Shown: positions 16,451 to 28,085, counted from the first letter of the stretch. The stretch is DNA of 64,000 nt from an uncultured Gemmatimonadales bacterium (GCA_963795085.1 CAWCFX010000002.1:64001-128000), one strand, 5' to 3'. Translations and numbers: made by a program. The notes: generated by a model not told the origin, from the letters alone.

Positions 16451-17485
16451 ATGCACTGGGACGCGCTGCTCGCCGATCTCCGGGCCCGAAAAATGGCGGC
16501 GCTGGCCCGGGCGATCTCCGTGGTGGAGAACGGGCGCGCCGGCTTCGAGGAGTTGCTCATCGCGATCCATGAAGACCTGGGAAAGGCCCGCCGGGTAGGG
16601 CTGACCGGGCCCCCCGGTGCCGGGAAGTCCACCCTCACCGAGGAACTGGTCACCGCCTACCGGGCTCGCGGTCTCACGGTGGCCGTGGTGGCGGTAGATC
16701 CGACCAGTCCATTCACCGGGGGCGCGCTGCTCGGCGATCGCATCCGGATGGAGTCGGTGGCGCTGGATGACGGGGTCTACATCCGGTCGATGGCTACCCG
16801 CGGCTCCCTGGGAGGCCTGGCGACCACCACCCGCGAAGTCTGCGACGTGCTCGACGCCGCGGGGTTTGACCGGATCCTGATCGAGACGGTCGGGGTCGGA
16901 CAATCCGAGCTGGACGTGGGGCGCAGTGCCGATTCGACGATTCTCGTCCTGGTGCCCGAATCGGGAGATGGCATCCAGGTGCTCAAGGCGGGGGTGATTG
17001 AAATCGCCGACCTGTTCGTGGTCAACAAGTCGGACCGGCCGGGCGCCGACCGGATGCGGCAGGAACTCGAGGTCATGCTGGGACTGCGTGCCGGGCGGAC
17101 GATGAAACACGTGCCCGCGCATCACGGGGCGCTCAAATCGGCGGAGGCCCGGATGACCCGGCCGACCGAGCCGGACCGGTGGACCCCGCGGGTCCTGTCC
17201 GCCGTCGCCGTGAAGGGCGAGGGGACCGAGGCGCTGGTCGACGCCCTCGATGTCCATCACGCCTGGCTGGAGTCCTCCGGGGCGCTGCTGGAGCGGCGCC
17301 GTCGGCGCATGGAACAGCGGACCCGGGAGGTCGTGGACCGGGCCGCCCGGGAGTGGATCTGGGACGAGACCCGGGCCGAAGCCATGATCCGGGACCGGCT
17401 CGATGATGCGATGGCGGGGCGGGTGAGCCCCTACGAGATCGCCGCGGGAGTGCTGGACAGCCTCAAACAAGGTGCTCGATCATGA
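16451..17485 (+). CDS. meaB: Mutase-associated G-protein chaperone MeaB (ArgK family)
   Basis: GLTGPPGAGKST, AVDPTSPFTGGALLGDRIRM, RSMATRGSLGGL, ETVGVGQSE, VNKSD. Start ATG 16451 preceded by TTGCCT-17-GACTTT. Confidence 0.93.
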   Translation: MHWDALLADLRARKMAALARAISVVENGRAGFEELLIAIHEDLGKARRVGLTGPPGAGKSTLTEELVTAYRARGLTVAVVAVDPTSPFTGGALLGDRIRMESVALDDGVYIRSMATRGSLGGLATTTREVCDVLDAAGFDRILIETVGVGQSELDVGRSADSTILVLVPESGDGIQVLKAGVIEIADLFVVNKSDRPGADRMRQELEVMLGLRAGRTMKHVPAHHGALKSAEARMTRPTEPDRWTPRVLSAVAVKGEGTEALVDALDVHHAWLESSGALLERRRRRMEQRTREVVDRAAREWIWDETRAEAMIRDRLDDAMAGRVSPYEIAAGVLDSLKQGARS

Positions 17486-19194
17486 GCGTGAACACTACGG
17501 CCGCGGCGTTCGACCTCGCCCAGCGGGCAGCCGCCCAGGAAAAGGAACTGGAACAGTTGCGGGAGGAGGTTCGCCGCTGGCGGGAGAAAAGCGATCAGCT
17601 CCCGGTGCGCGATGATTCCGACTTCACTTCCGTGTCCGGGCGCTCGGTCGAGCCGGTGTACACCGCGCTCGACCTGCCCGCAGAGCTCCAGGCGGCCTCC
17701 GGCCTGCCCGGCGAGTTTCCCTATACCCGCGGTATTCACCCCACGATGTACCGGGGCAAGCTGTGGACCATGCGGCAGTTCGCCGGGTTCGGCACCGCGG
17801 CGGATACCAACGAGCGCTACAAGTTCCTGCTGGCCCGGGGCCAGACCGGGCTCTCAGTCGCCTTCGATTTTCCCACGCTGATGGGCTACGATTCCGATCA
17901 TCCCCGCTCCGAGGGCGAGGTGGGCAAGTGCGGCGTCGCCATCAGCAGCCTGGCCGACATGGAAACGCTGTTCGCCGGGATCCCGCTGGGCGAGGTCTCC
18001 ACCTCGATGACCATCAACGGTCCCGCGTCGATCCTGTTCTGCTTCTACGTGGCGGCCGCCGAGAAGCAGGGGGTACCGCTGGCCCGCCTCCAGGGCACCA
18101 TCCAGAACGACATCCTCAAGGAGTACATGGCCCAGCACGCCTGGATCTTCCCGGCGGAACCGGCCCTCAAGATCATCGTGGACCTGTTCGAATGGGCCTC
18201 GGAGCACACGCCAAAGTGGAATACCATTTCGATCTCCGGCTACCACATCCGGGAAGCCGGGTCCACCGCGGCGCAGGAACTGGCCTTCACCCTGGCCAAC
18301 GGCTTCTGCTACGTCGAGCACGGGCTGGCCCGGGGGCTGGACATCGACCAGTTCGCGCCCCGGCTGTCGTTTTTCTGGGACGTGCATAACGATTTCTTCG
18401 AAGAGATCGCCAAGATGCGTGCCGCCCGGCGCATCTGGGCCCGTCACCTGAAGGAGCGCTATGGTGCCCGCAAGGCCCGCAGCCTCATCATGCGCTTCCA
18501 CTGCCAGACCGCCGGAGTCACCCTGACCGCCCAGCAGCCGGTCAACAACGTGGTCCGGGTCGCCTACCAGGCGCTGGCCGCGGTGCTGGGCGGCACCCAG
18601 TCCCTTCACACCAATGCGCTGGACGAGACCCTGGCGCTGCCCACCGAGGACTCGGTCCGGGTGGCGCTCCGCACCCAGCAGATCCTCGCCACTGAAACCG
18701 GGGTCCCCAACGTTGCGGACCCGCTGGGCGGCTCTTACTACGTGGAGGCGCTGACCGACGGACTGGAGCGGGAGGCGGAAGGGCTGTTCGCCGAGATCGA
18801 AGCCCAGGGCGGCGTGGTGGCGGCCATTGAAACCGGCTGGTTCCAGCGGCAGATCGCGTCCTCCTCCAGCCGCTTCCAGGCCGAGGTGGAGTCGGGGCTG
18901 CGCACCATCGTCGGCCTGAATGCCTTCGTGGAATCGGAAGAGACTCCCCTCGATATTCTGAAGATCAGCGACGAGGCGGAATCCTCGCAGCGGGACCTGA
19001 TGGCGCGGTTACGCGTGACCCGGGACGCCGCCCTGGTGGAACAACGACTCGCCGCGCTCGGCGCGGCGGCCCGGGACGGCCGGAATATCATTCCCGCGAT
19101 GCTGGATTGCGCCCGCGCCTATTGCACCCTGTTCGAGATTCGCCACGTGCTGGAAGAGATTTATGGTTCCTACCGGGAACCGATCTTCTTTTAG
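17482..19194 (+). CDS. B12-dependent acyl-CoA mutase large (substrate-binding) subunit, methylmalonyl-CoA mutase family, with isobutyryl-CoA-mutase (IcmA)-type active-site residues
   Basis: PGEFPYTRG, WTMRQFAGFG (F100), IQNDILKEYMAQH (Q218), SISGYHIREAG, GGTQSLHTN, ADPLGGSYYVE; no B12-binding domain. Confidence 0.92.
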   Translation: MSVNTTAAAFDLAQRAAAQEKELEQLREEVRRWREKSDQLPVRDDSDFTSVSGRSVEPVYTALDLPAELQAASGLPGEFPYTRGIHPTMYRGKLWTMRQFAGFGTAADTNERYKFLLARGQTGLSVAFDFPTLMGYDSDHPRSEGEVGKCGVAISSLADMETLFAGIPLGEVSTSMTINGPASILFCFYVAAAEKQGVPLARLQGTIQNDILKEYMAQHAWIFPAEPALKIIVDLFEWASEHTPKWNTISISGYHIREAGSTAAQELAFTLANGFCYVEHGLARGLDIDQFAPRLSFFWDVHNDFFEEIAKMRAARRIWARHLKERYGARKARSLIMRFHCQTAGVTLTAQQPVNNVVRVAYQALAAVLGGTQSLHTNALDETLALPTEDSVRVALRTQQILATETGVPNVADPLGGSYYVEALTDGLEREAEGLFAEIEAQGGVVAAIETGWFQRQIASSSSRFQAEVESGLRTIVGLNAFVESEETPLDILKISDEAESSQRDLMARLRVTRDAALVEQRLAALGAAARDGRNIIPAMLDCARAYCTLFEIRHVLEEIYGSYREPIFF

Positions 19195-19295
19195 TGCAGA
19201 GTGCAGAGTGCGGAGTGCGGAGTGCAGAGTGCAGAGTGCAGAGTGCAGAGTGCAGAGTGCAGAGTGCAGAGTGCAGGGTGCCGCGTGCCGCGTGC
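19193..19295 (+). repeat. Heptamer tandem array AGTGC[A/G]G x12 (19193-19276) plus 2-3 decayed units
   Basis: Read directly; the first unit overlaps the TAG stop of the mutase gene. Confidence 0.95.
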
Positions 19296-19343
19296 TTCTT
19301 CCGGCATTTTCTTTCGATTATTCGTTTGTGAAGGTTTTGATCA

Positions 19344-27171: not shown

Positions 27172-27174
27172 CCG

Positions 27175-27927
27175 ATGCTGCAGACCGAACTCTCCGGGGG
27201 AGTGCTCACCCTGACGCTCAACCGTCCCGAAAAGCGGAATGCGCTGGCGGCCGAGATGCTGGGCGCCCTCACCGCGGCCCTGGACCGGGCCGATCTGGAT
27301 GCCGATGTCCGGGTCGTCGCCATCCGGGGCGCCGGCAAGGATTTCTGCGCCGGCGCCGACCTGGCCGAACTGCTGGCGTCGGCGGACCAGGGGGTGGAGG
27401 CGAACGAGAAGGCCGCGCTGGAACTGGGCAACGTGTTTCTCCGGATCCGGGGCATCGCCAAACCGGTTGTCGCCGTCATCCACGGCCGGGCGCTGGCCGG
27501 CGGGGCCGGGCTGGCCACCGCCTGTGATATCGCGGTGGCCCGGGAAAGCGCCCGGATCGGGTATCCCGAAATCCTGCGGGGCTTCGTGCCGGCGATGGTG
27601 ATGACCATGCTGCGCCGGGCGGTGGGCGAGAAGCTGGCATTCGACCTGGCCGCGACCGGCAGGGTACTGACCGCGGGCGAGGCGGCGGCGGTGGGCCTCA
27701 TCTCCCGCGCGCTTCCCGATGCCGATTTCGAGGCAGAGGTCGCCGAGCTCCTCCGCCGGCTGGCCGATGCCGGGCCTTCGGCCATCGCGCTGACCAAGAA
27801 ACAGTTCTACCAGCTGGATGGCCTGGGGTTCGCGGAGGGCATCGCGCTGGGCGCCCGGGTCAACGCCCTGTCCCGGGCGACCCCGGAGTTCCGCACCGCG
27901 ATCGGCGCGTTCCTGACGAAGGAGTGA
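27175..27927 (+). CDS. Enoyl-CoA hydratase/isomerase (crotonase), methylglutaconyl-CoA hydratase-like
   Basis: LTLNRPEKRNAL, FCAGADL, GRALAGGAGLATACD, YPEILRG. Confidence 0.9.
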   Translation: MLQTELSGGVLTLTLNRPEKRNALAAEMLGALTAALDRADLDADVRVVAIRGAGKDFCAGADLAELLASADQGVEANEKAALELGNVFLRIRGIAKPVVAVIHGRALAGGAGLATACDIAVARESARIGYPEILRGFVPAMVMTMLRRAVGEKLAFDLAATGRVLTAGEAAAVGLISRALPDADFEAEVAELLRRLADAGPSAIALTKKQFYQLDGLGFAEGIALGARVNALSRATPEFRTAIGAFLTKE

Positions 27928-28085
27928 TGTTTCTCTCCCGGCTGCGACTGGTGCTGGGCCTCGGCGGGATGGCGTTTCTGCTGGCCGGGATCGCCCGTGG
28001 AAACCGGCTGATCGTGTGGGGCGCGATCGGACTGCTGGGCGGCTCCTTCCTGGTCCGGCTCTATCTGCGGAAGCGGGAAGGGTGA
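27927..28085 (+). CDS. 52-aa two-TM small membrane protein
   Basis: Not in the ORF track. TGATG overlap with the crotonase stop and AGGAG upstream; MFLSRLRLVLGLGGMAFLLAGIARGNRLIVWGAIGLLGGSFLVRLYLRKREG*. Confidence 0.7.
   Translation: MFLSRLRLVLGLGGMAFLLAGIARGNRLIVWGAIGLLGGSFLVRLYLRKREG

Follow-up and report, generated by a model that had tools for sequence, protein, structure and literature searches.

The Liu pathway of Pseudomonas (liuABCDE) degrades leucine with a carboxyltransferase (CT) from the clade of the 3-methylcrotonyl-CoA carboxylase beta subunit (MCC-beta), a crotonase-family hydratase and a carbon-carbon lyase. We analyzed a ten-gene cluster encoding candidates for the same three steps, located at positions 16451-28085 of a 64,000-nucleotide stretch of DNA (hereafter the window) from an uncultured Gemmatimonadales bacterium (GCA_963795085.1 CAWCFX010000002.1:64001-128000; contig C2 of a 3.89 Mb genome, 93% complete, with a G+C content of ~68%). 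The cluster differs from the Liu pathway in its proposed lyase, a two-subunit protein of the AtuA/CmlAB type and not a member of the TIM-barrel HMGL family (LiuE), in having neither a dedicated MCC-alpha subunit nor an isovaleryl-CoA dehydrogenase, and in being joined to a set of B12-dependent mutase genes. In relatives that have lost atuA, a 3-hydroxy-3-methylglutaryl-CoA (HMG-CoA) lyase holds the lyase role.

The described enzyme most like this lyase is the citramalate lyase CmlAB of Raoultella planticola (9evf/9erq), with which it has in common the two-subunit architecture, both folds and the GR.DP, EC and YE..DP stretches; the proposed common reaction type is the cleavage of a 3-hydroxy-3-methyl acid that releases acetate. 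According to a preprint, Cml consists of the two subunits cmlAB and splits citramalate into pyruvate plus acetate (bioRxiv 10.64898/2026.01.16.699985). A 2015 paper reports that glutamate-mutase clusters of enterobacteria contain, downstream of methylaspartase, a gene of the DUF1446 family, the fate of citramalate being unknown at that time. The substrate of CmlAB is the free acid, and in Enterobacteriaceae genes of its family neighbour those for glutamate mutase and methylaspartase, whereas the neighbours and crotonase fusions of the present family point to a CoA ester.

Two further systems resemble the cluster in part. The Streptomyces isobutyryl-CoA mutase (ICM) subunits IcmA/IcmB with their MeaB-like chaperone, and the fused IcmF, are alike in the split subunits and G-protein, the Phe/Gln columns and the DxHxxG motif; they differ in that the small subunit and chaperone described here are apparently common to a second, Tyr/Arg large subunit, and in that the genomic partner is a Liu-type module instead of a polyketide or butyrate context. 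The atu cluster of P. aeruginosa (atuABCDEFGH) also combines AtuA with a CT of the MCC/geranyl-CoA carboxylase (GCC) clade and a crotonase, whereas here AtuA is split into two genes, AtuB, D, F, G and H are missing and the CT lies nearer to MCC. To our knowledge, AtuA has had no proven reaction since the atu cluster was described. In one report AtuA is only expected to be an acetate-releasing lyase or aldolase in the Pseudomonas atu cluster (PMC13689101), and another assigns the lyase step of the atu pathway to LiuE (PMC4097962). Our literature search returned no statement that AtuA substitutes for HMG-CoA lyase, nor any of the mutase linkage; the primary paper for 9evf lies outside the coverage of that search and may bear on both.

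Our best explanation, in which we place roughly even confidence, is that the core of the cluster consists of two coupled units, a Liu-type leucine/isovalerate module with an AtuA lyase and an ICM-type mutase set. In the first unit, 3-methylcrotonyl-CoA would be carboxylated on CT with carboxybiotin delivered by a biotin carboxylase (BC) and biotin carboxyl carrier protein (BCCP) encoded elsewhere, the crotonase would hydrate the resulting 3-methylglutaconyl-CoA to HMG-CoA, and the two-subunit AtuA enzyme would cleave the tertiary alcohol of HMG-CoA, by analogy with citramalate probably to acetate and acetoacetyl-CoA. AtuA would thus replace the canonical HMG-CoA lyase and make the activation of acetoacetate by ScoAB unnecessary. 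The second unit (MeaB, a Phe/Gln large subunit and a small subunit) would be an adenosylcobalamin mutase for non-polar acyl-CoAs, most likely interconverting isobutyryl-CoA and n-butyryl-CoA as a valine-side branch parallel to the first unit; its small subunit and MeaB would probably also serve an orphan Tyr/Arg large subunit at C2:309.8 kb.

The original prediction, made from the window's sequence alone, had described ten co-oriented genes and named their domains; all ten open reading frames (ORFs) lie on the plus strand at the expected places, and Pfam and NCBIfam matches agree with the domains:

16451-17485, +, meaB (PF03308 298 bits; TIGR00750 318 bits, above cut-off)
17482-19194, +, mutase large subunit, mutL (PF01642 738 bits, profile positions 3-512/512)
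19344-20498, +, aeRF1-like gene (PF18854 baeRF_family10, 46 bits against a cut-off of 27)
20543-20974, +, B12-binding small subunit, mutS (PF02310 93 bits; TIGR00640 170 bits; DGHDRG)
20978-22615, +, carboxyltransferase, CT (PF01039 437 bits)
22612-25398, +, S8 peptidase, a subtilase lipoprotein (PF00082 131 bits; N-terminal lipobox VLAGC)
25395-26765, +, atuA (PF07287 496 bits, profile positions 1-436/437)
26776-27171, +, AtuA C-domain/ferredoxin-like protein, atuAC (PF23544 104 bits)
27175-27927, +, crotonase, ECH (PF00378 163 bits)
27927-28085, +, 52-amino-acid hydrophobic ORF (two predicted membrane helices)

Distribution of AtuA and HMG-CoA lyase across the phylum

We surveyed 151 genomes of the phylum in families f1-f12 (132 in f1-f9 and 19 in f10-f12), with tallies that include two unpublished genomes, G057 and G097; judged by the source names of its nearest AtuA homologues, the window itself belongs to Gemmatimonadota. 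AtuA (PF07287) is present in 118 of the 151 (116/149 without the unpublished pair), in each of families f1-f9 and in 0/19 genomes of f10-f12. The HMG-CoA lyase model NF004283 has no match in the genome that carries the cluster, whose single HMGL-fold protein (PF00682) resembles isopropylmalate/homocitrate synthases; it finds a lyase in 15 of the 151 genomes, and the 19 genomes of f10-f12 have neither lyase nor AtuA. Across the 132 genomes of f1-f9 the two are distributed as follows:

AtuA only: 114 genomes
lyase only: 11 genomes (G033, G043, G078, G126, G129, G147, G148, G010, G029, G088, G091)
both: 4 genomes (G059, G069, G099, G128)
neither: 3 genomes (G115, G113, G116)

Where AtuA and the lyase coexist, the latter scores 150-288 bits, compared with 319-422 bits in ten of the eleven lyase-only genomes; the G029 match falls below the model cut-off. 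The CT orthologue is kept, at 69-79% identity, in all five lyase-only genomes that were searched for it. All five retain mutS-CT and four of them meaB-mutL as well, in the following forms:

G126, G147: meaB-mutL-mutS-CT-S8
G078 (locus L142): meaB-mutL-baeRF-mutS-CT-S8-ECH, with exactly atuA and atuAC absent
G010: mutS-CT
G088: meaB-mutL…mutS-CT

A maximum-likelihood CT tree places the atuA losses at three separate points among AtuA-bearing relatives. The simplest reading of this distribution is that AtuA and the small subunit together perform the function of HMG-CoA lyase.

What accompanies the lyase gives a hint about the products. In 6/11 lyase-only genomes the lyase gene is followed directly by two 3-oxoacid CoA-transferase genes, scoA and scoB (G147 and G043 by Pfam; G126, G129, G148 and G033 by coordinates). 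Since the canonical lyase comes together with an enzyme that activates acetoacetate, the products of AtuA are probably acetoacetyl-CoA and acetate, the counterpart, at the level of a CoA ester, of pyruvate plus acetate. Our use of scoAB is limited to its adjacency to the lyase gene. Its mere presence was rejected as a marker: a PF01144 search is positive in 42/151 genomes, the cluster's own among them, with two score classes, and among the 10 genomes whose pairs score high, four also encode AtuA (G021, G110, G144, G140). We also rejected a swap of the lyase into the cluster in situ, as 0/11 lyase loci hold cluster genes, bar one weak crotonase match. As a side observation, G126 has lost atuA-atuAC-ECH along with ~14 kb more, and its counterpart of the acyl-CoA dehydrogenase gene that the window carries at 45971-47188 (L140:15794-17086, by Pfam only) lies ~2 kb from its cluster remnant.

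Fold and fusions of the AtuA pair

Single-sequence searches against PDB sequences found no relative of AtuA or of its small subunit. The model and profile of AtuA were built on an alignment of 38 homologues. The AtuA model (predicted local distance difference test, pLDDT, 95.5; predicted template modelling score, pTM, 0.91) matched 9evf_A, from the citramalate lyase-ADP-pyruvate complex, over its whole length in Foldseek (template modelling score, TM, 0.77, E 1.6e-26), and the next matches were noise with TM < 0.2. Identity over this structural alignment is 16%. The AtuA profile also matches the cmlA of 9erq/9evf, described as an AtuA family protein, with E 9.4e-12, and the GR.DP, EC (ECG/ECA) and YE..DP stretches are aligned. 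For the small subunit (pLDDT 87.5) the top fold match was the partner chain, 9evf_B (prob 1.00, TM 0.50/0.60), with a weak E-value of 1.5e-3.

Natural fusions point to the substrate. Homologues of ~600 amino acids carry both AtuA domains in one chain, and two proteins, P0198 and P0270, are AtuA-AtuA_fd-ECH fusions. The fusion to a crotonase domain connects AtuA with what an enoyl-CoA hydratase produces and suggests that its substrate is a CoA ester. From the fold, the fusions and the phyletic replacement, we propose that AtuA and its small subunit form an acetate-releasing lyase that cleaves HMG-CoA, and the locus does offer AtuA the testable context that the original prediction had seen in it. 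A different kind of fusion is found in P0122 of the 50% representative library, whose 1257 amino acids comprise a Ser/Thr kinase domain, TPR repeats and a full AtuA domain; it may be a real fusion or a gene-calling artefact.

Carboxyltransferase and crotonase

The best solved relatives of CT are 9tps_A (401 bits), the P. aeruginosa MCC-beta 3u9r_B (397 bits) and M. tuberculosis AccD1 (395 bits), against 320 bits for GCC-beta (5ikl_B) and at most 278 bits for the beta subunit of propionyl-CoA carboxylase (PCC). By these scores CT sits in the MCC-beta/AccD1/GCC-beta clade, nearer to MCC than to GCC, which agrees with its first description as MCC-like. The crotonase is most similar among solved structures to 1uiy_A, an uncharacterised Thermus enzyme (176 bits), with AtuE (4zu2) at 96 bits, and all its NCBIfam matches fall below cut-off; we propose that it is a 3-methylglutaconyl-CoA hydratase.

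These comparisons bear on whether the genes might instead break down acyclic isoprenoid or terpenoid acids in the manner of the atu cluster, with CT as GCC-beta, the crotonase as isohexenylglutaconyl-CoA hydratase and AtuA as 3-hydroxy-3-isohexenylglutaryl-CoA:acetate lyase. AtuA family membership speaks for this, as does the fact that CT, hydratase and AtuA correspond to three successive steps that two reports (PMC13689101, PMC4097962) put forward for the atu cluster of Pseudomonas. However, CT scores higher with MCC-beta than with GCC-beta, Pfam finds no AtuB, D, F, G or H homologues in the cluster, and the substitution of HMG-CoA lyase plus scoAB for AtuA suggests that the substrate is a C6 compound giving acetoacetate, so that we give an isoprenoid role only the faintest of chances.

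The B12-dependent mutase set

We typed the mutase by reading residues from alignments with solved methylmalonyl-CoA mutases (MCMs) and the 2-hydroxyisobutyryl-CoA mutase (HCM) subunit HcmA, at the columns that we take to be Tyr89 and Arg207 of P. shermanii MCM and Asp117 of HcmA. The large subunit has Phe at the Tyr89 column (WTMRQFAGF), Gln at the Arg207 column (KEYMAQ) and, at the HcmA Asp117 column, Ala in place of Asp (SVAFDF). Solved MCMs have Tyr and Arg (..RQYAGF, ..MVRNTY), and HcmA has Ile, Gln and Asp (..RQIAGF, ..MAQKEY, STDFDM). The closest solved sequence is HcmA at 564 bits, with IcmF at 310 bits. Judged by these columns, the large subunit is of the non-polar, ICM-like type, not MCM or HCM. 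Every cluster-linked large subunit examined, in Gemmatimonadota and in Blastocatellia, is Phe/Gln and the unlinked second copies are Tyr/Arg, so the isobutyryl-CoA-mutase type first assigned to this gene holds for all linked copies examined.

The small subunit carries the DxHxxG cobalamin motif as DGHDRG, and MeaB has a GPPGAGKS P-loop and an NKSD motif. Outside the window, at G000:C2:309756-311297, the genome encodes a second large subunit that is 54% identical, of the Tyr/Arg, methylmalonyl-CoA type, and has no adjoining B12 subunit or MeaB. In total the genome has two large subunits, one mutase-type small subunit (a single tblastn match) and one MeaB (a single tblastn and PF03308 match). 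With only one of each in the genome, mutS and the MeaB chaperone are probably common to the Phe/Gln and the Tyr/Arg large subunits.

Some relatives have separated the Phe/Gln large subunit from the rest, and G100, G142, G067 and G058 among them support this double use. A Phe/Gln split large subunit is absent from G100, where mutS-CT-atuA-atuAC-ECH is nevertheless retained. It is likewise absent from G142 and G067, which encode a Tyr/Arg copy and an IcmF-like fusion and retain meaB, mutS and CT-atuA in the cluster. It lies ~80 kb off in G058 and far away on the chromosome in G152 and G153. In five of five extra genomes the Phe/Gln mutase occurs together with AtuA, a count that has no AtuA-negative control and that we do not use as evidence.

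As for the substrate, Cracan and Banerjee are said to have found in 2012 that IcmF-type enzymes interconvert isovaleryl-CoA and pivalyl-CoA, and Kitanishi and colleagues reportedly observed in 2015 that removing the Phe at the Tyr89 column of IcmF favours pivalyl-CoA mutase activity. If the Phe has that effect, its conservation here argues mildly for an ICM over a pivalyl-CoA mutase. A missing valine route that would make an ICM route necessary was considered and ruled out by a methylmalonate-semialdehyde dehydrogenase encoded in the genome (723 bits).

Core genes and inserts

To delimit the module, we mapped the window proteins onto 20 loci around atuA from families f1-f6. The genes mutS-CT-atuA-atuAC are adjacent in 20/20 loci of the six families, with meaB present in 18/20, the Phe/Gln large subunit in 16/20 and the crotonase in 16/20, the four loci below threshold for the crotonase all belonging to family f2. 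A hydrophobic two-helix micro-ORF, probably a real gene, lies downstream of the crotonase in 9/18 loci judged by eye (families f1-f4). The aeRF1-like gene is found in 8/20 loci (seven of f1, one of f3) and the S8 peptidase in 9/20 (eight of f1, one of f3). Both are confined to f1 and f3, and family f2 has a tight seven-gene form without them, meaB-mutL-mutS-CT-atuA-atuAC-ECH (L021), which makes them later, lineage-specific inserts. The conserved core is therefore eight genes: meaB, mutL, mutS, CT, atuA, atuAC, the crotonase and the 52-amino-acid membrane ORF. Eight genes of the ten-gene module first described are thus retained, and the aeRF1-like and peptidase genes drop out of it.

The aeRF1-like protein scored 30-53 bits against the ribosome-hibernation-factor families NF052287, NF052288 and NF052289, which hold relatives of the Balon type and whose cut-offs are 320-480 (at best 53 bits, against a cut-off of 330). 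In f2 inserts of a different kind, 0.8-2.8 kb long, occupy the place between mutL and mutS, and this junction therefore seems prone to insertion. Unrelated peptidases stand inside the cluster in two phyla, the S8 lipoprotein in Gemmatimonadota (f1/f3) and an M28/transferrin-receptor-like protein on a Pyrinomonadaceae chromosome (L067:12265-14505); these insertions may hint at co-regulation with peptide use or may be due to chance.

Linkage beyond Gemmatimonadota

A 12-sequence alignment retrieved 80 AtuA loci of 51-73% identity from species-representative genomes. Among them the Phe/Gln large subunit occurs in at least 24, mutS in at least 35 and CT in at least 41, which are lower bounds because many contigs are short. 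Gemmatimonadota-labelled loci in this set have the same arrangement as the cluster. Loci of the Blastocatellia/Pyrinomonadaceae type (Acidobacteriota) read CT…atuA…atuAC…ECH, with NUDIX, alpha/beta hydrolase and M28 peptidase genes between; in five of them (L053, L054, L057, L058, L061) mutS-mutL lies on the opposite strand and converges on the crotonase, and in L048, L059, L067 and L078 mutS is the gene immediately upstream of atuA. In loci of the Bryobacterales type, which read CT-atuA(-atuAC-ECH), a mutase is absent within 10 kb. The linkage of mutase, AtuA and CT that was to be surveyed across phyla thus recurs in Blastocatellia/Pyrinomonadaceae in other orders and orientations, and its rearranged recurrence in a second phylum makes it more than synteny. 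Two single neighbours fit HMG-CoA or acetate chemistry: in a Chlorobiota-labelled locus an HMG-CoA-synthase-like gene and a thiolase follow atuA (L109:11492-13795), and in Pyrinomonadaceae an acetyl-CoA-synthetase-like gene ends at the atuA start (L066:8049-10004).

The mutase and the CT-AtuA-crotonase genes could still be neighbours with no functional link, brought together by inherited synteny and a block transfer between Gemmatimonadota and Blastocatellia. Blastocatellia AtuA is indeed nearer to Gemmatimonadota (58-65% identity) than to Bryobacterales (56-61%), as block transfer would give, and since such a transfer is possible the occurrences in two phyla are not fully independent; the tolerance of unrelated inserts at the junctions (the aeRF1-like gene, S8, others in f2) and the distant or absent Phe/Gln large subunit of G058, G152, G153 and G100 fit the same picture. 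Against this, mutS stands directly beside CT or atuA in 20/20 Gemmatimonadota loci, as it does, with three arrangements, in nine loci of the Blastocatellia type, start and stop codons overlap or nearly touch, and neutral synteny is not expected to outlast rearrangement. We regard a neighbourhood with no functional link as quite improbable.

At the other extreme, all the genes might form one linear B12 pathway, in which the Phe/Gln enzyme is a mutase of pivalyl/isovaleryl-CoA or of a different branched or tertiary acyl-CoA, the dehydrogenation of its product isovaleryl-CoA takes place elsewhere, and CT, crotonase and AtuA follow, the route serving pivalate-like, quaternary-carbon acids. This would explain why mutase and Liu-type genes stay closely joined in two phyla although rearranged; isovaleryl-CoA is the sole shared intermediate able to join both units, and the interconversion credited to IcmF-type enzymes would fit. 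However, every linked copy examined retains Phe at the Tyr89 column, CT-AtuA occurs without a nearby mutase in Bryobacterales, G100 keeps mutS-CT-atuA-ECH without the Phe/Gln large subunit, and pivalate-like substrates seem too rare for a class-wide core gene set. A linear route therefore appears unlikely to us. A fuller version would be a single undescribed B12 route combining a Phe/Gln mutase for a branched C5 acyl-CoA (pivalyl/isovaleryl-CoA or related), a carboxylase without its own alpha subunit, cleavage of HMG-CoA by the AtuA/CmlAB-type enzyme to acetoacetyl-CoA and acetate, and one small subunit and MeaB that switch between two large subunits; we allow it a modest chance, well short of even.

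The label of an undescribed B12 pathway given by the original prediction overstates the case: CT, crotonase and AtuA behave like the distal leucine route with a different lyase, which in Bryobacterales has no mutase nearby, and genomes without the Phe/Gln large subunit still keep mutS-CT-atuA.

Organization and surroundings of the cluster

Most of the genes adjoin closely, as had been described: four junctions overlap by 1-4 bases (4 bases at meaB/mutL, CT/S8 and S8/atuA, 1 base at ECH/small ORF) and three have gaps of 3-10 bases (mutS/CT, atuA/atuAC, atuAC/ECH). The spacers around the aeRF1-like gene measure 149 and 44 bases. For meaB an ATG start at 16451 is plausible; a longer ORF from a TTG at 16088 would extend into the gene of a TonB-dependent receptor (13465-16257, minus strand), which is divergent and flanks the cluster on one side. 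The other flank is a 17-base tandem repeat (ATTCCCTCAATTCCCAC) at 28105-28228, directly after the last cluster gene, with 7.3 copies and 99% matches. An Rfam scan of the whole window at gathering thresholds gave 0 matches, so no cobalamin riboswitch is called. A search for RNA sequencing runs that contain 18100-28090 listed none. Between 16000 and 28800 we found seven terminator-like sites, compared with 5.7 +/- 2.4 in shuffles, and the sole plus-strand promoter-like site of that interval falls inside the end of meaB.

Elsewhere, the window holds three Ser/Thr protein kinase genes (31612-33273, 38489-40234 and 58684-60924), a CheB-CheR-PAS-histidine kinase fusion (33355-36945) and several further peptidases: M8-like, S58 and two M16. 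Its sole acyl-CoA dehydrogenase gene (45971-47188) is of the short-chain/butyryl type; it precedes RNase G, at a distance of 18 kb downstream from the cluster.

Weighing the two-unit reading

Several observations weigh against a Liu-type module coupled to an ICM-type mutase, and the supply of carboxybiotin is the most serious. The window contains no biotin carboxylase or carrier, as had been stated, and the genome's two BCs and two BCCPs lie on contig C1, one set being accC beside efp-accB and the other, at 1.186-1.190 Mb, a PCC-type carboxyltransferase-x-BC-x-BCCP; a dedicated MCC-alpha is absent from the genome, which has only these accC/accB and PCC-type sets. BC or BCCP genes occur in the fetched flanks of 0/105 related loci. 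Known MCC requires its own alpha subunit, and sharing of BC and BCCP in trans occurs for other acyl-CoA carboxylases. With none in cis, a carboxylating role for CT requires such sharing, which we assume and which is the weakest link of our explanation. The crotonase is not close to characterised 3-methylglutaconyl-CoA or isohexenylglutaconyl-CoA hydratases, and no isovaleryl-CoA dehydrogenase is present in the cluster in a search that covered the window.

For the lyase, the chemistry is an analogy, given the 16% identity to CmlA, and because the genomes are related the counts in the exclusion table exceed the number of separate events, of which the tree shows three as independent losses. In addition, 19 of the 80 loci have atuA alone, mostly with atuAC, without CT or crotonase and in varied housekeeping surroundings (labelled Ignavibacteria, Bacteroidota, Chlorobiota, Kryptoniota, Bacillota, Ectothiorhodospiraceae and Actinomycetota), so the AtuA subfamily need not always act in a Liu-type route. 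For the mutase, valine needs no ICM route, since methylmalonate-semialdehyde dehydrogenase is present, and should the mutase branch do no more than run alongside, co-regulation would have to account for its tight linkage.

The missing biotin carboxylase would be explained if CT were a decarboxylase and the module ran in reverse. In such an anabolic scheme isovaleryl-CoA would be made from HMG-CoA, a conversion known from the alternative route of myxobacteria, and the mutase would turn butyryl-CoA into isobutyryl-CoA, both giving starters for iso-branched fatty acids. Phyla with this AtuA subfamily tend to be rich in iso-C15:0 lipids, and the HMG-CoA-synthase-like gene and thiolase of L109 would suit the scheme as well. 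However, atuA is replaced by the catabolic HMG-CoA lyase, six times with scoAB, and not by an HMG-CoA synthase; the cluster has no 3-methylcrotonyl-CoA reductase, and acetate-dependent synthesis of HMG-CoA would be uphill. An anabolic direction thus has a slim chance in our view, and the two coupled catabolic units continue to be our preferred explanation.

Implications

Several elements of this picture are new: the citramalate-lyase fold of the AtuA pair; the mutual exclusion of AtuA and HMG-CoA lyase, with retained clusters and scoAB; the apparent use of one small subunit for two large subunits; and the reclassification of the aeRF1-like gene and the peptidase gene as inserts. If the AtuA pair does cleave HMG-CoA, the annotation of leucine catabolism would need revision throughout a bacterial class and probably for some Acidobacteriota too. 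A second, unrelated type of HMG-CoA lyase would be added to the known one, sparing the activation of acetoacetate, and CoA esters would be established as substrates for the citramalate lyase fold. The arrangement of one small and two large subunits would offer a tractable case of cofactor-module sharing among B12 mutases. Together with relatives that represent a natural 'knock-out and replace' experiment, the locus frames a defined question: whether the AtuA pair cleaves HMG-CoA, and into which products.

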